From: Candidatus Norongarragalinales archaeon | GTDB taxonomy: Archaea > Micrarchaeota > Micrarchaeia > Norongarragalinales > Norongarragalinaceae | DNA length: 64,000 bases | Direction of reading: 5' to 3' | NCBI GenBank assembly: GCA_038884755.1 | Contig: JAWABJ010000001.1 | Span: forward strand, 608,001 to 672,000 | Shown here: positions 13,820 to 62,830 of the stretch, piece after piece | Layout: the number at the start of each line of letters is the position of its first letter | Position numbering within the stretch: position 1 is the stretch's first letter | Notes under the pieces: generated by a model | Told to the model about the DNA's origin: nothing | Database searches by the model: none | What the model saw: only the letters and a program-made list of their open reading frames with translations | Position numbers and translations under genes: made by a program

Positions 13820-13945
13820 CCCCAAATTTTTTGCTGGCCAGGAGGAGTCATAAATACCTCTAGAAAGCAGGAGTATTAATTTTTGTCTAAGCGGGCGGCT
13901 TAGTAAAGGAAAGAGGTTTCCAAGGAGAAAACCACGTTTTCTCCC

Positions 13946-14004
13946 GGATCAGACCGTCCGTCATTCATCATTCTGAGTCAGAAAGAATTCTAGGTCATCA
14001 TACA
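13946..14004 (-). ncRNA. C/D box guide sRNA
   Basis: C ATGATGA (14001-13995), D' CTGA (13981-13978), C' ATGATGA (13971-13965), D CTGA (13952-13949); 13- and 12-nt guides; TATA-like TTTAATAT ~25 nt upstream. Confidence 0.9.
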
Positions 14005-25704: not shown

Positions 25705-26871
25705 TTGGCGTTGGCAGTAAAACTCGAGATAATCGACGGCAAGGCGATAGCTTCGGACGCCGCATCCGTGGAATCCTTGAACAAAGGGTTTTTCGGAGAA
25801 GGCGTGGACGGAAAGAAAAACAAGCTACTGTTGAGTCCAGAGGAAGCGTTATACCTGTCGGACGTGCGCAACGCTGAAGTCATGCGCAATGAAAAGAAAA
25901 TCGATTTCAACCAGCTTGCGTTCGACCACCGCGACAAGCGCAAGTTTTTGGCTCGATATTTCTGCTATCGCGACTGGCGAGACAGGGGGCTAATCGCACG
26001 TAGCATAAGCGAAGCGCAAGACAATTACGGCCGCTCTCCGGTAGTAAAATACCCTTCGAAAGACTTTGCGCCGCACAAAATCAAGGGCAAGGGCTTGTTT
26101 TTCAACGACGACCTCATGACCACTCTCGACGAGGAAGAAGACAAGGTTTTATTCGAAAATTACTGGTTCGGGCAGTGGGGCACGTACAAGGCGAAAAAAC
26201 ACGGCAGACTCCTCAAGCTTGACGCTTACGAAACGCTGTTTTTGATGAAGCACGCTTCGCTGAAATGCAACATCCAGGAAAAACGCATGGTGCAGGAAGC
26301 ATTGGCGAGGCGCGCCGACTTTTTGTCGTTGTATAGCGTTTACGAAGACTTTCGCCTGCGCGGGTTTGTCGTGAAAACGGGATTCAAATTCGGAACTCAC
26401 TTCCGGCTGTATTTTCCCGGTGCGGCGCCTTCGTTAGAGCAGGGGGAATGGATGCACTCGAAACACGTGATTCACGTTTTTCCGCGCGAGGCGAAAATGC
26501 TCATAAGCGAGTGGAGCCGCGCTATAAGAGTAGCCCATGGAGTTAGAAAAACATTCATTCTTGCGATTCCAGGTGAAAAGCGCGTCGAGCGCGAAGAATT
26601 GGACTTCCTGCTTTACCATCGAAAAAAAGGAGGTTTGATTGAAAATCCTAAGGAAGACAAACCCAAATTTGTCATGATGGCTTTGAGCGAAGAAGAGGAA
26701 ATCGGAGGCGCAGAGCTGGCTCGCGCTATAGAACGCGCGAAAGAACTAGGCCTCGATTTGATTCTTGCGATTTGCGACCGAGAGACGAGCATAACGTATT
26801 ACAGGGTCAAGCGAATCGAGCTTCCAAAAAGCAAGTACGAATATTACGAGATAGAGTGGATTCAACCCTAA
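25705..26871 (+). CDS. endA: tRNA-splicing endonuclease, probably three-unit (epsilon2) type
   Basis: LSPEEALYL and YRDWRDRGL in unit 1; VYEDFRLRGFVVKTGFKFGTHFRLY, HSKHVI, RVAHGVRK catalytic Y/H/K; terminal EIEWIQP; 388 aa. Confidence 0.9.
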   Translation: MALAVKLEIIDGKAIASDAASVESLNKGFFGEGVDGKKNKLLLSPEEALYLSDVRNAEVMRNEKKIDFNQLAFDHRDKRKFLARYFCYRDWRDRGLIARSISEAQDNYGRSPVVKYPSKDFAPHKIKGKGLFFNDDLMTTLDEEEDKVLFENYWFGQWGTYKAKKHGRLLKLDAYETLFLMKHASLKCNIQEKRMVQEALARRADFLSLYSVYEDFRLRGFVVKTGFKFGTHFRLYFPGAAPSLEQGEWMHSKHVIHVFPREAKMLISEWSRAIRVAHGVRKTFILAIPGEKRVEREELDFLLYHRKKGGLIENPKEDKPKFVMMALSEEEEIGGAELARAIERAKELGLDLILAICDRETSITYYRVKRIELPKSKYEYYEIEWIQP

Positions 26872-30742: not shown

Positions 30743-30816
30743 GGGCTCGTAGCTCAGCTTGGCAGAGCGGCTGGCTTTTAACCAGCATGTCGTGGGTTCG
30801 AATCCCACCGAGCCCG
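30743..30816 (+). tRNA. tRNA-Lys(UUU), no intron
   Basis: GGGCTCG/CGAGCCC acceptor stem, CTGG-CT TTT AA-CCAG anticodon arm, GTTCGAATC. Confidence 0.95.
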
Positions 30817-30821
30817 CTAAA

Positions 30822-30842
30822 AGGAGAAACTACGTTTCTCCT
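30822..30842. repeat. GGAGAAAC-Nn-GTTTCTCC hairpin (copies at 13924-13944 and 49007-49030)
   Basis: AGGAGAAAC-TAC-GTTTCTCCT immediately after tRNA-Lys. Confidence 0.7.
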
Positions 30843-30874
30843 CTTTACTCCGCTTCCTTTGAGGGCGTGTGAAA

Positions 30875-38370: not shown

Positions 38371-38437
38371 AAATCAGATGACTCTATTTTCATCACAACT
38401 CGCTTTCGCGATCAGAAGTACCTCTAGTCATCATTCG
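38371..38437 (-). ncRNA. C/D box guide sRNA
   Basis: C ATGATGA (38434-38428), D' CTGA (38415-38412), GAAA tetraloop hairpin, C' GTGATGA (38396-38390), D CTGA (38377-38374); two 12-nt guides. Confidence 0.9.
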
Positions 38438-44369: not shown

Positions 44370-44539
44370 GCAGGGGTAGCGAAGCCTGGTCAAGAACCTT
44401 TTTGCTCTCGCAAAAAGCTTCACCAAAAACGCGACAGGTTCAGGGCCTGTTCTCTCAGGAGTTCGAGGGTTCAAATTGAGCAAAGCGCTGGCTTTGCAAC
44501 GTTTCACTCGCTTTGCTCGTGAAACTCCCTCCCCCTGCA
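44370..44539 (+). tRNA. tRNA-Leu(CAG) with two non-canonical introns (D-loop 44393-44427; T-loop 59/60, 44476-44525)
   Basis: Removing both inserts gives a cloverleaf with long variable arm; BHB helices TGGT/ACCA and TTCA/TGAA with 3-nt bulges. Confidence 0.9.
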
Positions 44540-48145: not shown

Positions 48146-48199
48146 GCGAAATCCACCAAATTACTTATAAGCGAGGTTGTTTTTTAAATTGAGAACGTA

Positions 48200-48331
48200 T
48201 GGGGGATCTGAGATTCGAAGTCCGGAGCTTTTCTTTCTTTTCCAAGGTTTTCTTTCTTTCGCAAAGAAAGAAAAGCTTCTCAGGTCGCCAGCTCCCAAAG
48301 CTGGCAGGATACCAGGCTACCCCAATCCCCC
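48200..48331 (-). tRNA. tRNA-Pro(UGG) with 59-nt intron at 53/54 (48278-48220)
   Basis: GGGGGAT/ATCCCCC acceptor stem, CCAGC-TT TGG GA-GCTGG; T arm CTGAG|TTCGAAT CTCAG split by hairpin insert. Confidence 0.9.
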
Positions 48332-48448
48332 GTGATTACAAAATTGCGGGCTGGAGGGAAATAAAACAAGCGGTTTCGCATACGTATTTATTCGCAAAAC
48401 CTTTTTTCCTTTAAAACGGTTTTTTGGAAAGAGGGGAAAAGACGCGGG

Positions 48449-48781
48449 ATGATAGGCGAATCGAGGCAGCCCAGGATAGTTTCCATAGGCAGGCAGCAGA
48501 AAAGCTTGATGGACTACCGCGAAGCTGGTGAGTACGTGCCCTACCGCAGGCAGACGCCGGCGTTTTACGCCGAGGCGAAACAGCTTTTCACCGACAACGA
48601 AATAATACTGCTCGCAATTTGGCTCGTTGTCTCTCCTTCCGCGGCGTTGGCGTACTTGATTTGGATAAAATACGAGCACTTGAGGCTTTTGGCACTGCTG
48701 CTGTTTGCGGTCGGAATAATCCACGCAGCCTACCAGTGGCAAGGCTTTTACGGGTTCGTTAGGAACCTCGCCGGTTTTTGA
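48449..48781 (+). CDS. hypothetical membrane protein
   Basis: Two C-terminal TMs; lies between tRNA-Pro and tRNA-Arg. Confidence 0.6.
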   Translation: MIGESRQPRIVSIGRQQKSLMDYREAGEYVPYRRQTPAFYAEAKQLFTDNEIILLAIWLVVSPSAALAYLIWIKYEHLRLLALLLFAVGIIHAAYQWQGFYGFVRNLAGF

Positions 48782-48828
48782 AACGCGAGCGTGGGGTTTA
48801 AAGAATTCGCGACACAATTCTTTACGGT

Positions 48829-49159
48829 GGGCCTATAGCTCAGCCTGGACAGAGCAACTGCCTTCTAAGTCAGGCTTTTCTTTTCACAAAAGAAAAGCCC
48901 GACGCGGTAAAAGAAAACTCGGTTTTTCTTTGGCGCGGCGCCAACCGCACCTTTCTTTTCGTGAAAAAGAAAGGGGCAAGGCAGCAGGAGGTCGGGGGTC
49001 CGAAAGGAGGAGAAACCAAGGTTTCTCCTCTCTACGCCTCTTCCTTTCGAGGAAAGAGAAAGGCGCGTTGCGCAAGAAAAAATAGTTTTTCTTTGGCGGC
49101 GCCCTCGCCTTTCTTTTTTCTAAAAAGAAAGGCAAGGCACGGAAATCCCCCTAGGCCCG
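48829..49159 (+). tRNA. tRNA-Arg(UCU) with two long introns (~115 nt, 48868-48982; 141 nt at 59/60, 49005-49145)
   Basis: GGGCCTA/TAGGCCC acceptor stem, D arm GCTC/GAGC, CTGC-CT TCT A|A-GCAG, GGGGG TCCGAA|T CCCCC; BHB core TCCG/CGGA. Confidence 0.85.
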
Positions 49160-49214
49160 CTTTTTTGCTGAAGAAAACGCAAGAGTTTTTATCGTTAGGC
49201 TGGTTAAGTATGCG

Positions 49215-49961
49215 ATGATAAAACTCAACGTTTTCCCCTTGGATTTGGAGTACGACGATTCCGAAAAAAAACTTTACTTCGAGGGAGTCGAACTTTCGCC
49301 GAACGTGCGCACTCTCGGCGAAATGTCGAGCGTGGTTTTAGACAAGGTTTTTTTCGAGAAAGCCGACAAGAAACGCATTCAGTACTACATGTTCAGGGAG
49401 ATTGCGAAGAAAGGCGACGTCGAGCTTTTCAAAACCCCGCCTTTGGAATTGTCTTACGACATTACGGTGATTCCCACGCTCGATTTGGGGAGGGAGTTCA
49501 ACAAAACCCTGGGGCATTACCACCCGAAAAGCCCGTTTGGAGCGCGTTATGCCGAGATTTACGAAGTGCTCGAGGGTGAAGGGCATTACTTGCTGCAACG
49601 CCTTGATGAAAAAACGGGAAACGTTGACGACGTCATGCTTGTGATAGCGAAGAAAGGCGACAAAGTGGTAGTGCCGAACGGCTATGGGCACATTTCCATA
49701 AACCCCAGTTCGAAAACACTGGTTTCCGCAAACATCACGGGCGTTTTCAAGAGCGAGTACGACCCTTACAGGCTCAAGGGCGGAGGGGCTTATTACGAAT
49801 TGATAGACGATTCGCTTTCTCCCAACGAAAACTACGCGAACCTTCCGCTCATTAAAACGGTCGACGCCATGGACTTGCCTTTGAACCAGCAGTTCGACGG
49901 CGACAACATTTACGCGCAGTTCGTCGAAAACCCGACGAAGTTCGACTTCCTGAAAAAGTGA
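49215..49961 (+). CDS. cupin-type glucose-6-phosphate isomerase family protein
   Basis: YYMFR, YDITVIP, EFNKTLGHYH, EIYEVLEGEG, VPNGYGHISIN. Confidence 0.9.
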   Translation: MIKLNVFPLDLEYDDSEKKLYFEGVELSPNVRTLGEMSSVVLDKVFFEKADKKRIQYYMFREIAKKGDVELFKTPPLELSYDITVIPTLDLGREFNKTLGHYHPKSPFGARYAEIYEVLEGEGHYLLQRLDEKTGNVDDVMLVIAKKGDKVVVPNGYGHISINPSSKTLVSANITGVFKSEYDPYRLKGGGAYYELIDDSLSPNENYANLPLIKTVDAMDLPLNQQFDGDNIYAQFVENPTKFDFLKK

Positions 49962-49974
49962 TTGCCCGGCACAA

Positions 49975-51936
49975 TCATCTTCGCGCGAGGATGAGGAAAA
50001 CAAGCAGCAAACCCAAAATCGAAAGGCCCATTGCCGCGTAATCGTACCACGGTTTTTCAAAACGCAGCACGACTTTCTCTCCCCGCTCGACCCCTTCCAC
50101 CGCGACAAGCCCTCCTGCGGCTTCAAGCACGCGCAATTCTTTTCCGTTAGAGTAAGCTTTCCAAAGCGGGTAGTGCATTACCGAAACGAAAGCGAAGCCG
50201 CTTTCGGGCGCGGTGAAAACGAGTTCCCTCGCGCGTTCGTCAAACTCTGTTTCGAAAGCGACTCCTTCCTCAGAAGACGCCAAGCGCAACGCCTCGCTCG
50301 CGTTTTTTTCGTCGACAGAGTAATCCGAGCTTGCAGGTTTGGTTTTAGGAAGGGTGAAAACCTTGGAAAGCGGCTCGAACGAATGGCTGGAAACAAGCTC
50401 CCTCTCGAAAAACTCTTCCGCATCGTCCAAGTCAAGCAAAACGCCTTGGGAAACGAAGCCGCCGACGCCAGGCGCTTCGTAAGTGATGACGTTGTTGCGC
50501 TGCTGCACGAGCACGAAGCGCACGTCTAGCAAGACCAGCTTGTTTTCGAACGAAACGGTGCCGTTGGAAAAGCCCAACCCGCTCACGAACGCTGAATACT
50601 CGGGATTGAGCCGCTCTGGGGGGTCGTAAAGCGTGGTGGAATTGCCGGAAAGCGAGACGAGCAGAACGTCGTCCTGCAAGTTCTGTCCTACAGTCAAAAA
50701 CCGCCCTCCCCCGCCCCTGTAATCCAAAACCGAGTAGTAGTAGGAAATTACTGGAGCTACGGGAAAAGAGTATGACGGCGCGGGAATCGCCAGGGGGTTC
50801 AAATCCAATGCTATTGCCATCGTTACGAGCGCAATTGCAAACCAGCGGGGCAAATCGACGTTCGAAAACCGCGCTTCTATCGCGCGCGACGCGAAGCCGG
50901 CTGCCAGTGCGGCGAAAAAACTCAGGAAAAAAGCGGGTCTGGACAGCGTTTGGTTCAACGGCGACAGCGCTTGCGGGAAAAGCGTGTCGAGCAAAAAGAA
51001 AGCCAACAACGCTAAAATGGCGTGAGAGTGGGGCGTTTTTTCCTTAAGCGCGCGGTAAAAGAAAACTGCGCAAAGCGCGGCCACGCTGAAGCCCAAGTAA
51101 AGCGAGTGCACGGTTTCCAGAGAAAACTCGCGCTGGAACAAGCTAACCGCAATATCCACGGGATTCACATTGCCCGCGCCGGAAGGCAGGTAGCGCGCCA
51201 AGTGCGTTTCCCGGAATTCGAACAAAAACGGCAGGAGAAAGAAGGACGAGGCGAGGATTGCGATTGCAATAGCCAAAGCCAATCGCTTTAAACCTTCGGC
51301 CGCCGCAAAACCGGAGCGCGTCAAGAAAACCCACGCGAAAGAAATGAAAATGAAATACGCGGCCGAAAGCGGGTGGGTGGAAAGGGCAACGGCAAAGAGG
51401 ATTGAAAGCGCGGCCAACGCCTTTCTTTCAAATTTTTGCGAAAGGCTTTCGGCGCATAACAGAATCCAAGGAAGGAGGGCGTAAGCGAAAACGCGCGTCA
51501 ACGAGCCCCACAATCTAGCTTCCACTGCCAACGGAAAGCTAAGCAACGCCGCCAAGGCCGCAACGAACGCAAAACGACCTTGCAAACCAAGCTTTTTCGC
51601 GAGGAAAAAAACTCCCGAGGCGAGGAGGAAGTATGAAACGAAAACTAGGAACGAAAGAGAATTCCAGACTCCCATCACAACCGCGAACGCACCGCTCAGG
51701 AAGTAAAAAAAAGGCGGGTAGGTGCGCGAGAAAACGCTGTTGGTGAAAAAATCGAAGGAAAAATCGAAATTCCCGCTTTCAAACTGGTGTTGGGCAAACC
51801 AAGTGCCGTAAGCGTGAAAGCCTATGTCGGTCCCCAAATTCGCTGGAATGCTTTGCTCGCCCTTCCAAGCGCTCGTGGCAAAAAGGCACGCTATCGAAAG
51901 CAAGAGTAGAAAAAACGCGCTTTCGTTCCATTCCAC
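49975..51936 (-). CDS. polytopic membrane glycosyltransferase-like protein (GT-C / YfhO-like)
   Basis: D..FH, YPPFFY, many TMs, C-terminal HYPLWKAYSNGKEL..V.LRFEKPW plus TM. Confidence 0.75.
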   Translation of the reverse strand: MEWNESAFFLLLLSIACLFATSAWKGEQSIPANLGTDIGFHAYGTWFAQHQFESGNFDFSFDFFTNSVFSRTYPPFFYFLSGAFAVVMGVWNSLSFLVFVSYFLLASGVFFLAKKLGLQGRFAFVAALAALLSFPLAVEARLWGSLTRVFAYALLPWILLCAESLSQKFERKALAALSILFAVALSTHPLSAAYFIFISFAWVFLTRSGFAAAEGLKRLALAIAIAILASSFFLLPFLFEFRETHLARYLPSGAGNVNPVDIAVSLFQREFSLETVHSLYLGFSVAALCAVFFYRALKEKTPHSHAILALLAFFLLDTLFPQALSPLNQTLSRPAFFLSFFAALAAGFASRAIEARFSNVDLPRWFAIALVTMAIALDLNPLAIPAPSYSFPVAPVISYYYSVLDYRGGGGRFLTVGQNLQDDVLLVSLSGNSTTLYDPPERLNPEYSAFVSGLGFSNGTVSFENKLVLLDVRFVLVQQRNNVITYEAPGVGGFVSQGVLLDLDDAEEFFERELVSSHSFEPLSKVFTLPKTKPASSDYSVDEKNASEALRLASSEEGVAFETEFDERARELVFTAPESGFAFVSVMHYPLWKAYSNGKELRVLEAAGGLVAVEGVERGEKVVLRFEKPWYDYAAMGLSILGLLLVFLILARR

Positions 51937-51950
51937 CGCAAAAGCCCTTT

Positions 51951-53600
51951 TTACATGTCCATGCCGGGACCGCCCGCTCCGCCCCCGCCAGGAGGCATTG
52001 CAGGCGCCTTGCCCTTGGAAGCGATTATGTCGTCAATGCGCAAAATCATTTCAGCGGCTTCGCTCGCAGACTGCATCGCCTGTTTCTTCACGCGAACCGG
52101 CTCTATGATTCCCAAATCACCCAAATCGTGGACGCGCGCCTTGTAAACGTCTATTCCCAAGCCGGAGTTTTTCTTCTCGTGCTTGCTGCGCAAGTCCACG
52201 ATAGTGTCAATGGGGTCCAGACCACAAGACTCGGCCAAAGCACGTGGAATCACTTCCAGCGCTTCGGCGAAAGCGTGAATGGCCAGCTGCTCCCTTCCAC
52301 CGACTTCAACCGCGTATTTGCGAAGGCGCATCGCCAACTCCATTTCAGTGCTGCCCCCGCCAGTCACGTACTTGCCATCCTCAACCGCAGACTTGACAGA
52401 GCCTATGGCGTCAACCAACGCCCGTTCAGCCTCGTCGACAACATGCTGCGTGCCCCCGCGAACCAAAAGCGTAACGCTTTTCGGGTCCTTGCACTTTTCT
52501 ACGAAAACCATTTGCTCGCCCGCGACCTTGCGCTCTTCAACCAGCCCGGCGTGGCCCAAATCCTTGGTCCCGAGGTCGTCGAGAGTGGTTACAATGCGGG
52601 CGCCAGTAGCGCGAACGAGCTTTTCCATGTCGCTCTTTTTCACGCGCCTTGCGGAAAGTATTCCTTTCTTGGCGAGATAGTGCTGCGCAACGTCATCAAT
52701 GCCCTTCTGGCACATGAGCACGTTCGCTCCGGAAGCCGCGATCTTGTCCACCATTGCCCTGAGCATTTTCTCTTCCTGCTCCAAAAACGCGGTCATCTGC
52801 TCCGGCGAGGTTATGGAAATCCGCGCGTCAGTCTCAGTCTTTTCTATCTCCAACGCCGCGTCGAGCAAAGCGATTTTAGCGTTCTCGATTTTTTTGGGCA
52901 TTCCCGGGTGCACCACTTCCTTGTCGATGAGCACTCCGTTTATGAGGTTGGTCTGCATTACGTCCCCGCCCTGCTTTTTCTCTAGCTTAATGTAATCCTT
53001 GTCCACAGTAATCTTGCCGGCGCTTTCAACTGCAACTTGCGTTACCGCGTCTACAACCATTTTCGCGAGAAAATTGCGGGCTTCGCCAGCTGAAACCGTT
53101 TTGCTCCCCATGGAAACAGCCGCGATTTTCTCGAGCGTAGCCTTGTCTTTCAAGCCCACGGTTTGCGAAACGGAATGCAATTCGTCAATCGCCTTTGCAG
53201 AAGCCATTTTGTAGCCCGCGATTATGGTCGAAGCGTGAATCGACTGGTCGAGCAAGTCTAACGCATTCTTCAAAAGCTCTCCCGAAAGCACGACAGCAGT
53301 AGTCGTCCCGTCGCCCACTTCCTCGTCCTGGGTTTTCGCGATTTCGACCATCATTTTTGCAGCAGGATGCTCCACGTTCATTTCCTGCAAAATCGTGGCG
53401 CCATCGTTCGTTATCACTATGTCGCCCATGTCTGAAACCATCATCTTATCCATTCCCCGCGGGCCTAGAGTCGTTTTGACTGCCGAAGCCACGGCATACG
53501 CCACGGCAATATTCGTCCTTTGCGCATCCCTTCCCAATAGCCTTGAAGAGCCTTCCGGCAACACCAAAACGTTTTGTCCGTTAATTTGTCCTTGAGTCAT
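51951..53600 (-). CDS. ths: thermosome (group II chaperonin) subunit
   Basis: [37 protein letters not shown], Gly/Met tail. Confidence 0.97.
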
Positions 53601-53729
53601 ACCACATCCACCTCTCTTGAAAAAGCATTGATACGATTAGAAACCGCAACTACGCTGTAGCAAAAAGCGATTGCCTGAGAATTGACCTTCCATATTTATA
53701 CGCGCAAAGTGTCTTTTAAAAATTTCGGT

Positions 53730-55445
53730 TCAGGTCCTTTTGCTCCTCGCTTCGATGACCTTCCGCTTGCCCTCGATTTCCTTGTCATCTATTTTCTTGA
53801 ACAGGATTTCTGGCTCCCCCAGCGTGTGCCCGCTCTTCAAACCCAATTCCAAGGCATCATCCCACTCCACGCCTTCGAACCTCACGTTCAACTGCGAAAA
53901 AATCCGCCTGGAGGTGAACGGCACGAACGGCTCGAGGATTATCGCGATGCTACGCAGCGCGTTCGCAGTGAGAAAAACGCAGGTTTTCGCTTTTTCGGGA
54001 TCAGTTTTGATAGCATGCCACGGCGCGGAGTCGTTGAAGTACTTGTTTGCCTCGCGGGCGAGGCCTACGGCGCAATGCAACGCTTCCTGAAGCTTGTACG
54101 CCAAAAGCAGTTCACGCGTTTTCTTTACGCTATCCGCAATGGTTTTCTTGAACGCCTTGTCGCCCTCGTCAAGCTTTTTCGAAACGGGGATTTTCGAGCC
54201 GTAGTTGTTTTTCGCGAAAACTAGGCAGCGTTGAAGCAAGTTACCCAGCGTGTCGGCCAAATCGCCGTTGACGCGTGTTTGAAACTCGCTCCAGAAAAAG
54301 TTGGTGTCGCTGTGCTCTGGCAGGATGGATAGGAGATAATAACGCCAGTAATCCGCTGGAAACCAGTCCAGCGCCTCGTCCGTAAAAATGCCCCACTTGC
54401 GAGACGTAGAGAATTTTTCGCCTTCGTAATTCAAGAATTCGACACTCTTTACCTGGTAAGGGAGTACGGCGTATTCCGACGCGAAAAGCACCGCCGGCCA
54501 CGTCACCGTGTGAAACGCAATATTGTCTTTCCCAAGAAAATGGATTATTTTCGATTGCGGACCACGCCAGTACTCCTCCCACCTTGCGCTTTCCCCTTTC
54601 TCGTCGAAAAGCTGTTTTGTAATCGAGATATAGCCTATGGGCGCGTCGAACCAAACGTAGAAAACCTTGTCTTCGTACCCTTTCAGCGGCACGCGCACTC
54701 CCCACTGCAAATCGCGCGTTATGCAACGCTCCCGCAAGCCTTCGCGAATCCACTGCAGCGCGAAGTTTCTCGCGTTGGAAGGCCACTGCTTTTGCTTTTC
54801 AATCCACTTGCGCAGTGGCTCGCTGACTTTCGGAAGGTCGAGAAACAAGTGCCTGCTCTCGCGGAAGTCGATGTTGTTTTTTCCGCAAATAACGCACGAT
54901 GGGTTCAAAAGCTCTATCGGGTCGAGGACCTTGCCGCATTTTTCGCACTGGTCGCCCTTGGCGTAAGGGTAAGCGCAATGCGGGCACTTGCCGGCCACGT
55001 ACCTATCCGGTAAAAACCGCTTGTCGGTCAGGCAAAACGGAAGCTTCAGGGTTTTTTCCGCAATCAACCCCTTCGCATGCAAGCGCTTGAACACTTCCTG
55101 TGTGGTCTCGTGGTTTTGTTTTGCGCTGGTACGCCCGAAGTAATCAAAACGCAATCCCCACTTTTCGTATATGCCGCGCTGGATTTCGTAGTACTTGTTG
55201 ACGTAATCGCGAATGGGCGTTTTCTCTTCGAGAGCTGCGACTTCGCAGGCGGTCCCGTGCTCGTCCGTCCCGCATACGAAAATCACGTCTTCGCCCTGCA
55301 AGCGTAAAAAACGCGCGTAAACGTCGGCGGGAAGCATGCTTCCCAGTAGGTTGCCCAAATGCTTTACCCCGTTGACGTAAGGCAACGCGCTCGTGACAAC
55401 TATCTTTTCCTTTGCTTTCGCCTTTCCCTTCAAGAAGCAAACCAC
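53730..55445 (-). CDS. metG: methionyl-tRNA synthetase
   Basis: TSALPYVNGVKHLGN, GTDEHG, Zn knuckles, YVWFDAPIGY, KFSTSR. Confidence 0.97.
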   Translation of the reverse strand: MVCFLKGKAKAKEKIVVTSALPYVNGVKHLGNLLGSMLPADVYARFLRLQGEDVIFVCGTDEHGTACEVAALEEKTPIRDYVNKYYEIQRGIYEKWGLRFDYFGRTSAKQNHETTQEVFKRLHAKGLIAEKTLKLPFCLTDKRFLPDRYVAGKCPHCAYPYAKGDQCEKCGKVLDPIELLNPSCVICGKNNIDFRESRHLFLDLPKVSEPLRKWIEKQKQWPSNARNFALQWIREGLRERCITRDLQWGVRVPLKGYEDKVFYVWFDAPIGYISITKQLFDEKGESARWEEYWRGPQSKIIHFLGKDNIAFHTVTWPAVLFASEYAVLPYQVKSVEFLNYEGEKFSTSRKWGIFTDEALDWFPADYWRYYLLSILPEHSDTNFFWSEFQTRVNGDLADTLGNLLQRCLVFAKNNYGSKIPVSKKLDEGDKAFKKTIADSVKKTRELLLAYKLQEALHCAVGLAREANKYFNDSAPWHAIKTDPEKAKTCVFLTANALRSIAIILEPFVPFTSRRIFSQLNVRFEGVEWDDALELGLKSGHTLGEPEILFKKIDDKEIEGKRKVIEARSKRT

Positions 55446-55628
55446 CGCTTATCGGCAAACGCAAAAAAATATGGAAAAACAAGGTTAAAAATGAGCGTCG
55501 GGATTGCGCGCAAGCGCTTCACAAAAAGGGGGGGGGAAGGCTTATGCAGAAATGCAGGAAATCTTTTGCTTCCAGCAAGGCTAAGAATGCATTTCTGCAG
55601 CTATAGAAGCCGGATGCCGGCTTCTATA

Positions 55629-55778
55629 TTATGCAGCCTTCTTCAAATCCTTGATTCTCTCTGCGACGCCCTTCGCCTCTTTTTCAAGAGACTCTTGGTA
55701 GTCCTCGAGCATCTCGATTTTCTCTTCCTTCGTCAGGAAGCCGCGCATGCCGTAGCACCCGCAGTCGTATCCACCCAT
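55629..55778 (-). CDS. DUF5320-like small coiled-coil protein
   Basis: Below ORF cutoff: MGGYDCGCYGMRGFLTKEEKIEMLEDYQESLEKEAKGVAERIKDLKKAA*; SD GGAGGTG. Confidence 0.8.
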   Translation of the reverse strand: MGGYDCGCYGMRGFLTKEEKIEMLEDYQESLEKEAKGVAERIKDLKKAA

Positions 55779-55800
55779 TTTGCACACCTCCCTATTTTGT

Positions 55801-55856
55801 TATCGGACATACGATATACAGCAAAACGCATATTTAAATATATCGGTCGTCCAATA
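55801..55856. promoter_or_regulatory. two TATCG-N6-C(G/A)ATA operator-like boxes flanking a TATA box
   Basis: Boxes at 55801-55816 and 55841-55856; TTTAAATA at 55833-55840; between divergent PadR and DUF5320-like genes. Confidence 0.65.
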
Positions 55857-55861
55857 CGTTT

Positions 55862-56164
55862 ATGGGAAAAACCGATGCTTGCTGTGACATGCGGGGGATG
55901 CTGTCGTTCTTGTTGCTGTTCTTGATTTCGAAAAAGCCCATGCACGGGAAGGAAATAGCTGACGAGCTGGAGCGCAGGAAGGGAGAAAGGCCGAGCCCTG
56001 GAACCATTTACCCCGCACTGAAGGCTTTGAAGCAATCGGGGTTCGTGAAGGAGAAGAAATCGGGCAAGACGATTACGTATACCATTACCGACAGCGGGAA
56101 GCGGGCGTTGAAGGTTTCGAGGGATAGGTTTTGCAGGACGTTCGTAGAAGTTTTCGAGGCATGA
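55862..56164 (+). CDS. PadR family transcriptional regulator
   Basis: LISKKPMHGKEI, PSPGTIYPALK.L, YTITDSGK. Confidence 0.93.
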   Translation: MGKTDACCDMRGMLSFLLLFLISKKPMHGKEIADELERRKGERPSPGTIYPALKALKQSGFVKEKKSGKTITYTITDSGKRALKVSRDRFCRTFVEVFEA

Positions 56165-56170
56165 GGTATC

Positions 56171-56440
56171 ATGAGCGAAGCAACCGAATTAAGAAAGGAA
56201 ATAGGAAAGCTCAAGGAGAGGAACACCAAAGTAGAGGCGGACAAGGCTTGGGAAACGAGCTGGGCGAGAAAACTCTTGATTTTCGTGCTTACGTATTTGG
56301 CTATGGTCGTTTATTTTCAAGCAACGGGACTTCCGAATCCGCTCGTCAATTCCTTTGTGCCAGCATTGGCTTTCGTCATTTCCACCCTAAGCCTGCCTTT
56401 CTTCAAGAAACACTGGACTGAAAGAATTTACAGAAAGTAA
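56171..56440 (+). CDS. small membrane protein
   Basis: ERNTKVEADKAWETSWARK plus two TMs. Confidence 0.75.
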   Translation: MSEATELRKEIGKLKERNTKVEADKAWETSWARKLLIFVLTYLAMVVYFQATGLPNPLVNSFVPALAFVISTLSLPFFKKHWTERIYRK

Positions 56441-56442
56441 AA

Positions 56443-56583
56443 TGCTCCGCCCGGGATTCGAACCCGGGTTGCTGGCTGTCCATACGGCCTTTCTTTTTTC
56501 GTCGAGGTTTTTTCTTTCCGCGAAAGAAAAAAAAAAGGTCGTTTGAAAGGCCAGCGTCCTGGACCGGACTAGACGAGCGGAGC
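56443..56583 (-). tRNA. tRNA-Glu(UUC) with 66-nt intron at 37/38 (56543-56478)
   Basis: GCTCCGC/GCGGAGC acceptor stem, CTGGC-CT TTC A|A-GCCAG, GTTCGAATC. Confidence 0.92.
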
Positions 56584-56626
56584 TCTTCTAGCATTAGGGA
56601 ATAGAAAGAATTTGCTCGCGCGGGTT

Positions 56627-57289
56627 TTAAATGATTTTTCTTTCGCGAAGTTTCGAGAAGACGAGCATGGAAACCTCTTCCTTGCCTTTTAGCCTCCCGT
56701 TTTCCATGCATTTTATGACGAGCCAGTGTTTTTCCTTCGCCAAACGCAGGTAGTTGTCGTAGACGGCGTTCGCGTAAAAAGCGTCTTTCTCGTGAATGTC
56801 TTTCTTGACCCCGCGAATCTTGTTCTTCCTTTTTTCAATCAGCCTTCCGCTTTGGACCGGCGGAACGTCGAGAAATATTACTATATCGGCTTTAGGCAAC
56901 CCTTGCTCCACGCGTTCTATCCACTCGAGCATTCTTCTTCTTCGTTCTGCAGTAAGCCCCGCCGTCTGGTAAGCTAGGTTGGCTTGCGTATACCGGTCTA
57001 AAACGACGATGAAGCCTTTCCGCAAGTAATCTTCAATTTCGCCTTTGCGTGAATACCGGTCCAAAGCGTAAAGCAGCGAGGCAAAGTGCTTTGAAACTTT
57101 CCCTCGCCCCCCAAATTTTCCCTTCAAGTAAAGCGCGATTAGCTTTCCCACGGGAGTGGCGTAAGAAGGAAAGTCCATCAAAACCGCTTTCTTTCCCGAG
57201 CGCTTGAGGTTTTTCACCAAAAGCTCTGCTTGCGTTTTCTTGCCCGAAGCGTCAATGCCTTCGAAAACGATTAAAGCCACTGAACCCAC
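56627..57289 (-). CDS. tmk: thymidylate kinase
   Basis: IVFEGIDASGKKTQ, FPSY, LLYALDR, LDRY..ANLAYQ, DIHE. Confidence 0.95.
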   Translation of the reverse strand: MGSVALIVFEGIDASGKKTQAELLVKNLKRSGKKAVLMDFPSYATPVGKLIALYLKGKFGGRGKVSKHFASLLYALDRYSRKGEIEDYLRKGFIVVLDRYTQANLAYQTAGLTAERRRRMLEWIERVEQGLPKADIVIFLDVPPVQSGRLIEKRKNKIRGVKKDIHEKDAFYANAVYDNYLRLAKEKHWLVIKCMENGRLKGKEEVSMLVFSKLRERKII

Positions 57290-57299
57290 CGTTGGAAAA

Positions 57300-57854
57300 C
57301 TATCTTATGAAATTGCGCAGCACTGATGCCGCGAAGGGAATAAGGATGTTGTCGTCTACCTTCAAGTCCACGCTTTCGACTACTGCCAGCAAAAGCGAGT
57401 ATATAACGGCGTTTTGCAGGCCCAAAAAAAACATTGACGAAGCGACGCCCGCTAGGATGAAAGCGCCAAGTCCGTCCCAGGTCTTATTCTTGTTGAACGG
57501 AAGCGGGCGCGTGCCTGAAACGCCGACGAGCGTGGCGAAACCGTCTCCGAAAGCTAGAATTGCAAGGATTCCCATCGCGAAGTTGAAGTCAACCGCGGAA
57601 AACAGGAACAGGGCGCCTGCCACGTACGTGAGTCCGCCGCGCGCGGGAATGCGCTCGCGCCTGTCGAAGGTTTCCAGCATGAAGTCTATGAACTTGTTCC
57701 TCCACCCTTCGATTTTAAGCTGCACGAACATCAAGCCCAAAAGCAGGATTATTCCCAAAAGCAGTATGGTCAAGTCGCGGCCTGCAAAGTTGGCTATGAA
57801 CAAAAGCATGGTTCCGAAGAGCATGTGCAAAATCTGTCGTCCCAGTTCCACCAT
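57300..57854 (-). CDS. dolichol/phytol kinase-like (CTP-dependent polyprenol kinase)
   Basis: ELGRQILH, FGDGFATLVG, NKNKTWDG, DDNILIP. Confidence 0.85.
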   Translation of the reverse strand: MVELGRQILHMLFGTMLLFIANFAGRDLTILLLGIILLLGLMFVQLKIEGWRNKFIDFMLETFDRRERIPARGGLTYVAGALFLFSAVDFNFAMGILAILAFGDGFATLVGVSGTRPLPFNKNKTWDGLGAFILAGVASSMFFLGLQNAVIYSLLLAVVESVDLKVDDNILIPFAASVLRNFIR

Positions 57855-57867
57855 TCGCAACACCGTT

Positions 57868-58380
57868 TCAGGCTACTTTCTTGTTCAACAGGTTTTCGTC
57901 CAGCATCTCGTCCAAGTCGAACTTCGCATCGCCGCCGTAAAACTTTTGCCAAATTTCGAAAACTGCAAGGTAAACCATTACAGCCAGAGCCACGCCTCCC
58001 GCAATCTGGTCGAGCGAGTGGACGCCGAGCCAAACCCTTGACAGCGATATTATTACGGACAAGAAAAACAACGGGAGGAATAGGGACGTTCCTATCGCGC
58101 CCATGGCTAGGGCGGTTGTTGCTACGGCGTGCGTGGAGGGGAAGCCTTCGGAAGAAGGGCAGGGAATCTGACCGTTGCCCGCGATTTCACAAGGGCGTGG
58201 TTGGTCGAAAAAAGCTTTCAGGCCCACGCCCAGCGCCAAAGCCAAGACCAGCGAAATGACGAAAACCTTCTGGTTTTTGGCGAAAAAAAACACTAGAAGG
58301 AAGGCGACTGCAGCGTAGGCAAGGAAACCCCAAGTGCTGTGGAAGAAAAGCCCTATGGAATTGAAAACGGAGGTTAACAT
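57868..58380 (-). CDS. PAP2 family lipid phosphatase
   Basis: LK..FDQPRP, FPSTHA, SRVWLGVHSLDQI.GG. Confidence 0.9.
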   Translation of the reverse strand: MLTSVFNSIGLFFHSTWGFLAYAAVAFLLVFFFAKNQKVFVISLVLALALGVGLKAFFDQPRPCEIAGNGQIPCPSSEGFPSTHAVATTALAMGAIGTSLFLPLFFLSVIISLSRVWLGVHSLDQIAGGVALAVMVYLAVFEIWQKFYGGDAKFDLDEMLDENLLNKKVA

Positions 58381-58460
58381 GAGAAATCTCGAAAGGACTT
58401 AAGAAAACAAGGCTTTTTAGTCTTGCGAAAGCAAAAAAGTTTTGAAGAAAATACCTATAC

Positions 58461-58550
58461 GCCGGAGTAGCTCAGTTGGTTAGAGCGCTAGACTCATAAG
58501 CGCAACGCTGTGAAACCTAGAGGTCGGGTGTTCAATTCTCCCCTCCGGCA
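58461..58550 (+). tRNA. tRNA-Met(CAU), elongator type, 16-nt intron at 37/38 (58499-58514)
   Basis: GCCGGAG/CTCCGGC acceptor stem, CT CAT A|A loop, relaxed BHB; mismatches A31.C39 and one T-stem U.U. Confidence 0.88.
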
Positions 58551-58551
58551 T

Positions 58552-59316
58552 TCAACGCTTTTTCGCCACAGGCTTCATCAAAAGAAAATGCCTGTTTCCT
58601 TCAGAGTGGATGTAAATCCCGCGAAAGCCTTTCCAGTCCACGAACTTGTAGGCGGTTTCAAGCGGGTGCCCCTGCTCTTCGACCAACTCCAAAAGATAGT
58701 GCCTGCGCTGTTCGTTTAAATCGTGCAGTTGAGTTTTGACCGCGCTCAAGGTTTTGGTCTTATCCAAAGTAACCCGGTCCAAGCCCGCCAGTTTCGAAAC
58801 GTCCATCTCTTTCTGGGGAAAATTCAGCCGCCCGCGAATGTAAAAACGGTGTTCGCCGGGACCGTACCTGTTCGCAACCCAGTCTGCAACCCTGAACCCC
58901 TCGTGGTTTACGTTGACTACCAAAGACGGGATGTTGTGGGGGCTCATGGTGCTTTGCTTCGTTCGATTGCCGAGCATTTCCTTGATGCGGGCATGCATCA
59001 TCGTCGCTATCCCCAAACCGCGGTAGTCCCTGTGAACGCCGTTGAACAAAGTCAAAAACGAGTTTCCCTCGCCTTTCAACGCTATGTAAAAGCCGACAGG
59101 CGTTTTATCGTAAAAAGAAACCAAAACAATGCCCGGCCGTCCCAACTTAGGGTCGACTATCTGGAGCAACGCATCCTTACCCAGGTAAGGGTGTTTTTTT
59201 CTCTTGCCGCTCCTGCTCACGCTGGCGTGCAATTGAAGTTCTTCAAGCTGTTCCGCCAGCCTGTGCTCGTCAGGATGCAGTTCGCGAACCAAAATGTTTT
59301 CAGCGGGTTTTCTCAT
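58552..59316 (-). CDS. GNAT family acetyltransferase
   Basis: GVHRDYRGLGIAT acetyl-CoA motif, P.NIPSL, GF, YGPGEHRF. Confidence 0.75.
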   Translation of the reverse strand: MRKPAENILVRELHPDEHRLAEQLEELQLHASVSRSGKRKKHPYLGKDALLQIVDPKLGRPGIVLVSFYDKTPVGFYIALKGEGNSFLTLFNGVHRDYRGLGIATMMHARIKEMLGNRTKQSTMSPHNIPSLVVNVNHEGFRVADWVANRYGPGEHRFYIRGRLNFPQKEMDVSKLAGLDRVTLDKTKTLSAVKTQLHDLNEQRRHYLLELVEEQGHPLETAYKFVDWKGFRGIYIHSEGNRHFLLMKPVAKKR

Positions 59317-59327
59317 TCACACACCGT

Positions 59328-59825
59328 TCAAGCGTGAAACGCTTCCACAAAATAGTCGCGCCCGTCCTTGCGCACGAAAATGTCGTGCATGGGAAGCGAA
59401 CGCTGGTTTGACACGACGAACTCCTTCAGCATGAGTGAATCCGATGGAATCATTTTCTCTGGAAGCTTGTCCAAATCGAACCACTCGACTTCCCCTTCTA
59501 TCGAACGCGTCAATTGCAGTTGCTTCGGCTTCAGCTGCACTACAAAAAGCAGGAAATGCTGTTTTTCCTTTGCATTGTCCTGTGGCGTTATTATTTCCGA
59601 AGAAATGCCGCGCAGCGCCACGAACTCGCAATCCAAACCCGTTTCTTCGCGGGCTTCGCGCACCGCCGCTTCCTTAAGCGTTTCCCCGAAGTTTATCTTC
59701 CCGCCAGGAAAACCCCACTGGTCTTTGTAAAGCCGCTTTTCGTGCTTCAGCAGGAGAATCTTGTTTTCAAACAAAATCGCGTCAAGCACAACACCCAACG
59801 GCTTTTGCTCTTCCGCCCCGTTCAT
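59328..59825 (-). CDS. Nudix hydrolase
   Basis: [25 protein letters not shown]udix box. Confidence 0.93.
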
Positions 59826-62467
59826 GAGAATTTTCCCCTCGCAAACGCCTTGTCCCCGCCGCCCTTGGCGCCCTTCGCCTTAAGCAGTTCAACCGCATTC
59901 TCCCCGCTTTGCGCGCCCGACGCCGCCGCAATAAACCCCTCCTTGTTCCAAACTACCACGCTCGCGCGGGGGTTTAATTCTATCGTTTTCAACGCTATCT
60001 TCTCCAAAAGCCTCTGGGGCGCATTCAACTCCTGCGAAGTTTTATCTTTCAAAGAAAACTCGCGTGCGTAATTCTCCGCGTTCTTCTCCCACAAATCCTC
60101 GATTTCCTTCTTTTGCGCTTTCCACTCCTCAAAAAACCTTTGCACAGTCGAAGGCAACTCGTCCAAATGCACGCTCAAAACATCTGCAGCATCTTGCAAA
60201 TACGCTTCGTGCTCGCTAACGTAAGCCAAAGCCCGGTCTCCGGCCTTGTAGCGTATTCTCAACACCCCGTCCTGAACTTGTTCTATGGCGGTTATTTTGA
60301 TGAAACCTATATCCTTAGTATTTTCACAATGCGTCCCCCCGCAAGCTTGAACGTCCCAACCTACGATTTCGACAATACGCACTTCGTCCGAAGGCGGCCC
60401 GCCTCCCTGGTAAATGCCAAAACCGTACTTTCGCTCAGCCTCTCCCCGCGGCTGGAAAGAACACTTGATTGGAAGGCCTTTGCGCACGACTTCGTTAGCC
60501 AAACGCTCTATCTCTCTCCTTTCCTCGCCAGTGATTTTCTTGTAATGCGTAATGTTAACGTGCCCTTCATCCTCGTCTTTTCTCGAGCCGGCTTGCCAAA
60601 CGTGCTTTCCCAAAACGTTTTGAGCCGCGCGAAGCACGACGTGCGTTGCAGAATGGTGCTTTCGAATGTCCTCGCGGCGTTTTTCGTCGAGCTTCAGAGA
60701 AACTCCCTTGCCTTTCGCGAAAGGTGAGTGTTTTTCCAAACAGTGGACAACAACGCCATCTTCCTTTTGTACATCACGAACAAAAACCCCGTCGATCCAC
60801 CCGTGGTCTCCGCACTGCCCTCCGCCTTCGGGATAGAAAATAGTCTGGTCCAAAACGATTTTGTCTTCCTTCGAACCCATTACTTTCGCGTCCAAGGCGT
60901 AAGCGAAGGGCTTGTCGTAATAAACCAATTTCGTTGGCTTGAGCCCGTCGAACTCTTTCTTTTTCGCTTGCGCCTGCTTTTCCAAAACGTGCTTTTCAGC
61001 AAGCTTCTTGTAAAAGTCGGTTGGAGCGGAAAGCTGCACGCCTTGCTGTTTCGAAACGCTTTCCACCAATTCAGGCGTAATCCCGTGGCTCTCGTACAAA
61101 ACCATCATTTTGTCGGAAGTCAAAGGCTCTTTGCGCGAAATTATTTCGCGAACCTTGTTCGAAGCGTTTTTCAGCGATTCTTCGTACTTCTGCTTTTCAA
61201 CGTCTATTATTTCCTGCAGTGCAGGCAACCGTTCTTCAAACTCGGGCCACAATTGCTTGAGTTCGCGCGCGTGGAGTTTCATCAAGTCCATCAAGCTCAA
61301 ATTCAAGTTGTGGTCTTTCACGAACGAAAAGCAACGGCGGAACAACAAGCGAAGGTTATAGCCGCCTCCCGTGTTTGAGGGTATCGCACCGTCGCTCAAC
61401 GCCATTAAAAGCGTACGCGAGTGGTCTGCCAAAGCGTAAATAGCTTGCATGGGCGCGATTTGCTTTTCCATCTCTTCGAGCGAAAGCCCGAGCATTGACG
61501 CTATCTTCTGCTTTTCCTCGCGCATATTACGAACGCTTTCAACGTCCAATCCTGCCGAGAGCGACGCGTATTTGCGCAAAAGCGCATCGTCAAAACGCAG
61601 TCCGGAGTGTTTTTTCGCGTACGCTATCACGGACGGAAAAACCGCATCGTACGCGGTCAATTCGCCCGTGTAATACCACAACAACCTTTCAAAACCCCAG
61701 CCCACGTCTACCACGCGCATTGGAAGTTCTTTCGTCCCTTCCTTCGCGTCCCAGTAGTACTGCATGAAAACGCTATTCACTAGTTCGCTGCCATTCGCAA
61801 AGCTTTCGATGCACGGGCCGAACGCGCTGAAGTCTGGCATTGACCAAACGTCTTCGGCGTAAGTCAAATCGTTCTTGGGGACTTTCAAAACCTTAGTCAA
61901 AAAGTCGTAATTTAGCCGAATGCAATCGTCGAGCCAGTACGCTTTCTTGTCTTTCGGGTGGTTGAACGACTTTTGCCCGGCCATCATGAAGCCGGAAAAA
62001 TGACGGCCCGTAACCCCGACGTTCGCAATGTCCACAAACCTCATGCAAGGCTGCGGCACGACCAAGGGATTCGCGGGGTATTCGAAAACTACTTTTCCGC
62101 CTTCCAACCTTTGAAAATCCACTACGTCAGCAATGACGAAAAACAAGTCGTCTCTCCACTTTGCGAGCAAAGGATAGCGTGGAATTACCTCGTGGTTGTT
62201 TTTCTTCCAGAAGTCGGCGAATTTCTTCCAAAACGCGGCGTAGCTCTCGCGCAAAGGCGTTTTCTTGAAGAAAGAGTATTCCTCGTGAGAACTGTCTCCG
62301 CACGAGTCGCTTCCGCCCGCAGTCCAATAGTTTTTGCCGCACTTTACGCACGTTTTCCTCACAAAACCCTGCTCGTCGAACAATTTCGTTTTATAATATT
62401 TCGTAGGGTTTTTGGAAAACTCGTCTTTCAAGCGTTCTTTCGACACTCCAGGCAAGTAAAGAGGCAT
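59822..62467 (-). CDS. alaS: alanyl-tRNA synthetase (archaeal type)
   Basis: [58 protein letters not shown]; true start MPLYLPG. Confidence 0.96.
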
Positions 62468-62510
62468 AATCGCTTTTACTCGCTCAAAGTTTAAAAGAGT
62501 GAAGAGGAAC

Positions 62511-62830
62511 GGGGGTGTCGGGTCGTAGTCCGCTTTTTGTTGCTCGCGACATCCGTCTAAGCGTCCGGCAAACGGGACTTGCACCCCTTATAGCCCAGCT
62601 CGTTTCACCCGACTTCCGCGCAACGTCACATTACGGTCATACTGCGCGCGGTTCGGTATCGTTTCTATTCCAGGCTCGCGCCCAAAACGCGGGCACTTGC
62701 GTGCCTCCGTCCTTTGCTTTCTTTGATTGAACTTTCTTTCTCAAAGAAAGTTCAGGAGGGTGAGCGGAACTTCCTCAGCTGCCTCCCCTTATGCAGGAAA
62801 GGCTACCGACAGTCGCGCACCCAACACCCT
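62511..62830 (-). ncRNA. rnpB: RNase P RNA
   Basis: Terminal P1 GGGTGTTGGG/CCCGACACCC, GAGGAAGTTCCGC / AACAAAAAGCGGACTA P4 pseudoknot, AGAAAC and TGAAAC, GGTGCAAG. Confidence 0.93.

Follow-up and report, generated by a model that had tools for sequence, protein, structure and literature searches.

A directional A/T-rich repeat with a predicted triplex fold as a likely source of introns in stable-RNA genes of a micrarchaeal genome

It is not settled by which route introns come into archaeal tRNA genes. In a 64,000-nucleotide stretch of DNA from a Candidatus Norongarragalinales archaeon of the phylum Micrarchaeota (contig JAWABJ010000001.1 of assembly GCA_038884755.1, positions 608,001 to 672,000; this whole stretch is referred to as the window), we describe a short repeat, termed module A, that likely creates new introns of the bulge-helix-bulge (BHB) type; the enzyme, the fold and the direction of events are what we infer. 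As the module opens most introns, occurs unspliced elsewhere and leaves what are likely duplication intermediates, intron gain becomes testable. The source genome, G000, is 927 kb long and 93% complete. The window corresponds to G000:C1:608001-672000, and the features in Table 1 are given in window positions (1-64,000).

The original prediction, made from the letters of the window, had described one family of palindromic AT-rich hairpins in tRNA introns and in or next to other stable-RNA genes. All hairpins that it named were found: the pattern TTCTTT-N3-8-AAAGAA has seven matches at six sites of the window, compared to 0.21 ± 0.46 in shuffled sequence, and these lie in the introns of tRNA-Pro (two overlapping matches) and tRNA-Glu, in Arg intron 1 (two) and Arg intron 2, and in RNase P RNA. 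Its second module, GGAGAAAC..GTTTCTCC, is present as an exact match 3' of tRNA-Lys and within Arg intron 2, against an expectation of 0.00, and a third copy 3' of a C/D box small RNA (sRNA) as a variant with one extra A/T pair. However, module A and the GGAGAAAC motif, here module B, share no sequence and represent two families rather than one. Nor is module A a simple palindrome, since the unit is longer, directional and includes a third, mirror-image tract that had been overlooked.

Module A measures about 45 bases and consists of a foot, a pyrimidine tract (TTTCTTT-type), a loop, a purine tract (AAAGAAA-type), a spacer and a second, mirror purine tract of the same type. We analyzed 190 distinct archaeal copies; these come partly from G000 and partly from relatives, at loci selected for motif, tRNA or RNase P. 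The length of the A-run after the G in tract 1 equals that of the A-run before the G in tract 2 in 156 of the 190 copies, while shuffling gives 61 ± 6 matches with a maximum of 79. With one copy per spacer the match is 92 of 117 versus 38 shuffled, and in spacer families with length variants both tracts change together in 14 of 20. A third tract in the form of a direct repeat was also considered and rejected (55 matches versus 58 under shuffling, 190 copies). The order of pyrimidine, purine and mirror purine tract on one strand is that of a class II intrastrand triplex as defined in the accessible part of PMC4666352, and module A has this layout (class IV on the opposite strand) and is predicted to fold accordingly. 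Measured against the ITxF limits (stem 6-15 nt, loops 1-6 nt), its stems and first loops fit, whereas the second loops are 3-14 nt long and stay at or below 6 nt in 50 of the 190 copies. The G/C-rich BoxC/TM-ECO consensus is absent from the A/T-rich module. The same part of PMC4666352 states that RNA does not adopt purine-motif triplexes; the usual sense copies therefore point to a fold at the DNA level. The near-symmetric tract would in turn enable the U-tract to pair with the distal tract in RNA, which would draw the ends of the intron together. Such pairing is predicted in 6 of 17 module-led introns, while 10 of the 17 keep the local hairpin. For the Pro and Glu introns, too, the predicted pre-tRNA fold pairs the U-tract with the distal tract instead of forming the hairpin originally described. 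Module B is a separate family with the same layout of a hairpin followed by a third strand, in reverse polarity, running from a purine arm over the loop to a pyrimidine arm and a third tract, again of pyrimidines, and allows only 6-8 possible triples by eye.

By count, module A stands at the start of approximately 23 of the 40 tRNA introns of G000, and module B at that of 4. The boundaries of 30 introns were set by a rule-based script, which picked the best register for T-loop introns; in 17 module-led introns among them the U-tract starts 3-8 nt past the 5' splice site. The central helix has at least three of four pairs in 28 of the 30 introns and is perfect in 16; the Glu intron has three of four. 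With a 4-bp helix and 3-nt bulges at the junctions, these introns are, judged from their sequence, predicted archaeal BHB introns. Five genes of the window (Pro, Arg, Glu, Met, Leu(CAG)) were spliced in silico, and each gives a normal tRNA. The tRNA splicing endonuclease EndA, likewise encoded in the window, is of the three-unit epsilon2 type and matches the ARMAN-2 enzyme 4fz2 over its full length (E 2e-125). Epsilon2 EndA cuts both strict and relaxed BHB motifs (PMC3239211, accessible part). Module introns also hide genes: ARAGORN and Rfam overlooked three tRNA genes of the window, Pro, Arg and Leu(CAG), and the last of these, a further module-bearing gene, had escaped the original prediction as well. 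In its D-loop intron the spacer of the module itself provides the 4-bp BHB helix. In the 16S and 23S rRNA of G000 three module A copies form mini-introns; such introns interrupt conserved rRNA sites.

Table 1. Stable-RNA genes, introns, module copies and the splicing endonuclease gene in the window.
Feature	Position	Strand	Remark
tRNA-Pro(TGG) gene	48199..48331	-	spliced form scores 124 in ARAGORN
Pro intron, 59 nt, 53/54, central helix 3/4 pairs	48220..48278	-	outer helix predicted: U-tract and distal A-tract
Module A sense, Pro intron (hairpin 48244-48278, mirror tract 48229-48241)	48229..48278	-	
tRNA-Arg(TCT) gene, two introns	48829..49159	+	in-silico splicing gives normal tRNA
Arg intron 1, 115 nt, 37/38, two head-to-head module A copies	48868..48982	+	
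Module A sense, opens Arg intron 1	48870..48917	+	
Module A inverted, long spacer, closes Arg intron 1	48923..48976	-	from sequence
Arg intron 2, T-loop, 141 nt, 59/60	49005..49145	+	absent in 4/4 congeners
Module B, opens Arg intron 2	49007..49047	+	
Module A inverted, closes Arg intron 2	49086..49133	-	
tRNA-Glu(TTC) gene	56443..56583	-	in-silico splicing gives normal tRNA
Glu intron, 66 nt, 37/38, essentially one module A (56488-56542) and tail	56478..56543	-	
RNase P RNA gene	62514..62828	-	RF00373, 104.8 bits
Module A sense, variable-helix loop of RNase P RNA, no BHB	62716..62753	-	absent in G003, G004
tRNA-Lys(TTT), intronless	30743..30817	+	
Module B directly after tRNA-Lys	30822..30860	+	
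C/D box sRNA (C, D', C', D boxes)	13949..14001	-	sub-threshold Rfam match
Module B variant directly 3' of C/D sRNA	13905..13944	-	
Hidden tRNA-Leu(CAG), two introns	44370..44539	+	spliced form scores 119 in ARAGORN
Leu(CAG) D-loop intron, 35 nt, T-tract variant of module A only	44393..44427	+	
Leu(CAG) T-loop intron, 50 nt, other hairpin family	44476..44525	+	resembles Glu T-loop intron of G006
tRNA-Met(CAT), 16-nt intron, no module	58461..58550	+	ARAGORN without intron mode: Glu(CTC)
tRNA splicing endonuclease, epsilon2 type	25705..26871	+	full-length match to 4fz2

A strict scan for module A was carried out on contigs C1-C3 of G000 with crude gene calls, setting aside contigs C4-C9 (56 kb), tRNA-Leu(CAG), initiator tRNA-Met and T-only variants. 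(The six contigs C4-C9 are small, have no credible tRNA genes, differ in G+C and may be foreign.) Of the 41 copies found, 29 lie within stable-RNA genes, 8 in flanks of at most 60 nt, 3 in other intergenic DNA and a single, chance-like one in a coding sequence; 30 shuffles yielded none. An enrichment in tRNA introns and non-coding RNA flanks is borne out by the 37 of 41 copies that lie in stable-RNA genes or within 60 nt of them. With 5.5 kb of flanks and 83.7 kb of other intergenic DNA in the search space, the density in the unspliced 60-nt flanks is about 40 times that of other intergenic DNA. This, in combination with an RNase P copy lacking a BHB, indicates that tolerance through splicing is not the whole story. 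The original idea that a miniature element accumulates in RNA genes where splicing makes it harmless thus holds for the concentration in RNA genes, but not for splicing as the sole cause of tolerance. By count, 32 of the 37 copies are in sense orientation, and each of the 5 antisense ones lies at the closing end of an intron or ahead of a tRNA; the foot of the hairpin thus always faces an exon or tRNA end. Across the 190-copy set, at least 114 copies adjoin a tRNA half, in addition to rRNA matches (small hidden Markov models, insensitive). Module B follows two of the four C/D sRNA candidates; another candidate, 38374-38434 (-), lies directly downstream of tRNA-Gln(CTG) and has no module after it.

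In RNase P RNA, module A replaces the loop of a variable helix, by reading P8. Inspection by eye of 19 aligned genes shows no BHB at the boundaries of the insert, a similar hairpin in G023 and other hairpins in G002 and G014. Given the missing BHB, this copy is probably carried rather than spliced.

The module A pattern occurs in 41 of 61 relatives, among them 24 of 25 of the family, and in 35 of 151 genomes of the phylum; it is also present in five named Micrarchaeota records, by reading in tRNA genes in four. The introns themselves turn over in a gene-by-gene reading. Of 20 genomes, 14 have introns in Arg(TCT), and a T-loop intron occurs in 3; Pro(TGG) is interrupted in 9 of 21, the position being 37/38, 53/54 or the T-loop; and Glu(TTC) has introns in 12 of 16, where five genomes of the genus show four make-ups and two of these genomes have no Glu intron. 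Parts of introns recur as well: the module copy that closes Arg intron 2 (49086..49133) has a near-identical counterpart in G002, in the 3' part of the anticodon intron of tRNA-Arg(TCT). A chance-level motif or identical introns at the same positions across distant relatives had been named as outcomes that would speak against a mobile element. Instead, the motif lies far above chance, and presence, position and make-up vary among congeners. The tRNA-Pro gene next to aspS reads TGG in G000 and CGG in four congeners (G001-G004), which suggests exchange between Pro genes.

The rRNA operon of one relative, G027, contains 12 module-led inserts of 40-110 nt, one of them in the spacer tRNA and one only weakly module-like. 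With boundaries taken from the exon alignment, the central 4-bp helix is perfect in 9 of the 12; there is no target duplication, and the tail of each insert matches its own site. The same operon (L261, G027:C63:4300-11250) also carries longer inserts, one of which is C/D sRNA-like.

At the ends of tRNA genes of relatives a different arrangement is seen. Following 21 of 155 tRNA 3' ends, there are 61-234 bp and then a copy of the gene's own end, spanning position 51-59 to 73-79 (0 in a reversed-query control). Hairpin modules are present in 17 of these 21 by a loose pattern, often with a forward module on the left and an inverted one on the right. The copies extend into the genomic trailer and have no CCA, and hence are derived from DNA. 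At 5' ends (6 of 97), 13-25 nt of the tRNA start are followed by a module and the intact gene. The end duplications of the relatives vary in length (12-25 bp) and are likely the footprint of DNA insertion. A templated tail is visible by eye in two or three of the 5' cases and not in the flank copies of G000, and is not established.

We favour, with moderate confidence, a reading in which module A is a non-autonomous, triplex-folding DNA element that enters stable-RNA genes by its foot and persists in one of three ways: as a BHB intron, with a duplicated tRNA end, or in a loop or flank that tolerates it. A trans-acting enzyme would recognise the folded single strand of the module and join the foot to DNA that heavily transcribed, structured genes expose. 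In one outcome the tail would pair with four exon bases and the foot, letting the broad-specificity epsilon2 EndA excise the module; in another, a short tRNA end would be duplicated and the gene restored; or else a tolerant loop or flank would serve as the site, as in RNase P and trailers. Recombination would then likely reshuffle modules among tRNA genes and produce mosaic introns. A wider version, which we put forward tentatively, sees a cross-domain class of triplex-ended single-strand mini-elements, read by an enzyme, that in Micrarchaeota target stable-RNA genes and write BHB introns at new tRNA and rRNA sites, with tRNA end duplications as the other product of one reaction.

A number of observations weigh against insertion by such an element. 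It offers no account of how each tail comes to match its own site. Only two of four central pairs form in 2 of the 30 introns, and three of four in Arg intron 1 and the Pro intron. G015, a member of another genus, has a near-identical Glu intron while two congeners have none, a pattern that retention or allele exchange would explain just as well as transposition. Copies of related genomes within the 190-copy set are not independent. The loci with end duplications had been pre-selected for motif or tRNA, so that their proportions are not rates, and G000 itself has no end duplication. For those of the relatives, healed introns are an alternative to insertion footprints; under either reading they link the flank copies to D-loop and T-loop introns. 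As to the fold, pairing between loop and tail of module A is absent in archaea (1.13 versus 1.06), and an E. coli relative of the motif gave no stable triplex in vivo (PMC4666352, accessible part). Finally, no mobilising enzyme was found among five families tested (Y1, DUF559, GIY-YIG, reverse transcriptase, integrase) in genomes that are incomplete. Y1 occurs in 7 of 41 module-bearing and 9 of 20 module-free relatives, DUF559 in 11 of 41 and 8 of 20 with module A at none of 23 loci, and tyrosine integrase in 20 of 41 and 10 of 20; neither GIY-YIG (0 of 5) nor reverse transcriptase (0 of 1) is linked to module A. The integrase loci have modules in 4 of 28 cases, all in a tRNA-like context. In G000, a tyrosine integrase gene lies immediately behind each of tRNA-Leu(CAA) and tRNA-Leu(TAA), at C1:432206 and 568215; the second is a 1032-aa open reading frame (ORF), with a group of genes similar to a restriction-modification set after it, and neither has a matching tRNA-end copy nearby. 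At L408 (G022:C25:14371-16856), on an A/T-rich contig that is possibly foreign to its bin, a DUF559 gene is bracketed by inverted G/C-rich BoxC-type repeats.

The failure to find an enzyme in these five families would be accounted for if none were needed: a triplex-prone tract could stall or break replication, template switching and gene conversion between tRNA and rRNA genes could spread the module, and the end duplications would be introns healed by slippage. We consider this unlikely, even though mosaic introns have halves in common across positions and genomes, three Ala genes have a common 3' flank, Leu(TAA) shows tandem expansion, the right junctions of the 3' duplicates look like T-loop intron ends, and such motifs are tied to local instability in the accessible part of PMC4666352. 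Conversion finds no homology at the dozen unrelated rRNA sites of a single operon, in RNase P or at the intergenic sites; moreover, the orientation of foot to exon is strict, and the three-way mirror covariation requires selection on the fold. The conserved fold and an orientation fixed relative to transcription would also be in line with a host function, in which the module is a protein-binding site or a 3'-end, replication or transcription signal that is kept by selection and colonises pre-existing introns; of 9 copies sampled in a bacterial genome, 7 lie 6-17 nt past a sense stop codon. Against this, which appears quite improbable to us, stand the patchy distribution (41/61 relatives, 35/151 phylum genomes) with gain and loss at single genes, a sense layout corresponding to a purine-motif triplex that RNA does not form (PMC4666352, accessible part), and the fact that the module itself makes the 5' end and outer helix of the intron.

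Two further explanations invoke mobility by other means. Excised intron circles might reverse-splice, by way of EndA and ligase, into abundant RNAs through four-base pairing and then be reverse-transcribed into the genome, which accounts for stable-RNA targets, sense bias, ready-made BHB motifs and introns without target duplication. Yet G000 has no reverse transcriptase, antisense copies are found at 5' flanks, the duplications reach into the genomic trailer without CCA, tails differ at every site and the conserved fold is impossible for sense RNA; we therefore see very little chance for this route. Lowest in our estimate, and scarcely credible, is the mechanism proposed originally, a palindrome of the repetitive extragenic palindrome (REP) or miniature inverted-repeat transposable element (MITE) type, moved by a REP-associated tyrosine transposase (RAYT/TnpA(Y1)), that inserts anywhere and survives only where spliced. 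The repeat is dispersed and short, its stem foot is mismatched, and its head-to-head doublets are like REP mosaics. However, G000 has no Y1 gene, none of 39 Y1 loci (30 archaeal, 9 bacterial) has modules at the gene ends, and ordinary intergenic DNA is nearly empty of module A, which contradicts passive tolerance. What stands of the REP/MITE comparison is the dispersed miniature repeat that builds introns; the REP/RAYT system does not.

Insertion of a triplex-folding element has its closest parallels in two known phenomena, and module A works like both while being a member of neither. With the BoxC/PIT/TM-ECO repeats, as presented in the accessible part of PMC4666352, it shares the pyrimidine-purine-mirror purine order, the nature of a short, dispersed extragenic repeat, inverted doublets and a copy number that varies between relatives; no enzyme is known there either. 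It differs in being A/T-rich with one central C/G, a variable tract length and a 3-16 nt spacer, and in being concentrated in stable-RNA genes, where it forms intron ends; intron formation is not described in that part of PMC4666352. Transposition of tRNA introns has been reported in Thermoproteales (Fujishima et al. 2010, as cited in the accessible parts of PMC4090602 and 10.64898/2026.10.13.758758), where related intron sequences occupy different positions and tRNA genes under BHB constraint. In contrast, the common part here is a module smaller than the intron, which is found unspliced as well, in flanks, RNase P and intergenic DNA, occurs in rRNA and in bacteria, and has a conserved predicted fold. 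The 2026 Asgard preprint 10.64898/2026.10.13.758758 tested copying, mobile elements and reverse transcription, and its accessible part gives no general route for introns.

Other systems share single traits. Candidatus Micrarchaeum acidiphilum ARMAN-2 likewise has an epsilon2 EndA, 59/60 and multiple introns and relaxed BHB motifs, and a repeat origin of the introns in its disrupted tRNAs is not described in the accessible part of PMC3239211. The small hairpin introns of archaeal 16S genes (PMC4496867, accessible part) are also short, non-coding BHB introns in rRNA, but those of different loci were too different to compare; in the present genomes, inserts at many loci begin with one module. Integrative elements targeting tRNA genes duplicate the tRNA 3' end from near the T-loop and were proposed as intron vectors (PMC8371274, PMC3293823, accessible parts); an attL/attR-like repeat of the tRNA end is seen at the 21 of 155 3' ends in relatives and at none in G000. 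Unlike such elements, our inserts measure 60-240 bp, lack an integrase, affect many isotypes with their own ends and include 5'-end duplications. REP sequences, their assemblies BIME and REPIN with RAYT, and MITEs (PMC4666352, accessible part, and general background) resemble module A as short dispersed units with inverted doublets that in bacteria lie after stop codons, but module A has a three-part fold, no Y1 partner and no fixed target duplication. As to terminal inverted repeats of the MITE kind, composites carry inverted modules at both ends and most introns have one module; no fixed target-site duplication was found at intron junctions and no cognate transposase among the families searched. 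We found no description of the repeat in archaeal introns in the open-licence literature, the scope of which did not extend to the supplements of PMC4666352, possibly listing archaeal A/T motifs. Module A is a new, A/T-rich variant of the triplex repeats that likely generates introns by a mechanism we infer, and the orphan intrastrand-triplex repeats gain a covariation argument for their fold as well as a biological consequence.

The motif extends beyond archaea. Run on 1/64 of the genome collection, a stricter pattern matches 122 stretches, 111 of them bacterial, from which about 10,000 are estimated in all. In bacterial copies the loop pairs with the tail (3.65 versus 1.67 pairs, 100 distinct copies), which fits an antiparallel third strand. 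Five sampled genomes have 3-146 matches each, mostly head-to-head pairs about 400 bp apart in Paraburkholderia. In G062, the 146 matches are mostly located between convergent genes, and units of about 450 bp (L332, L342, L351, L357) are MITE-like with inverted module A at both ends. Rfam searches of 20 bacterial loci gave sub-threshold matches only, chiefly to a Burkholderia sRNA adjoining the motif. Phage records matched in tRNA exons only, and the 17 motif matches on viral contigs have no recurring neighbour by ORF position, the proteins not having been scanned.

Several other features of G000 were noted. Rfam did not find the archaeal SRP RNA. A tRNA-Ile gene with TAT anticodon and, by eye, two introns, one in the D-arm, is located at C1:13053-13218 (-), which ARAGORN calls Lys. 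Long introns of about 659 and 216 nt in 16S and of about 725 nt in 23S rRNA are present at L391 (C1:679300-688300), some of which may be group I or homing-endonuclease introns. Further hairpin families are shared by tRNA introns and flanks (C1:142771, 424988; C2:66428, 90700), connecting the T-loop introns of Asp and Val, and the Arg(GCG) intron with the Val(TAC) leader. A structured non-coding stretch at C1:116450-116700 bears both modules A and B.

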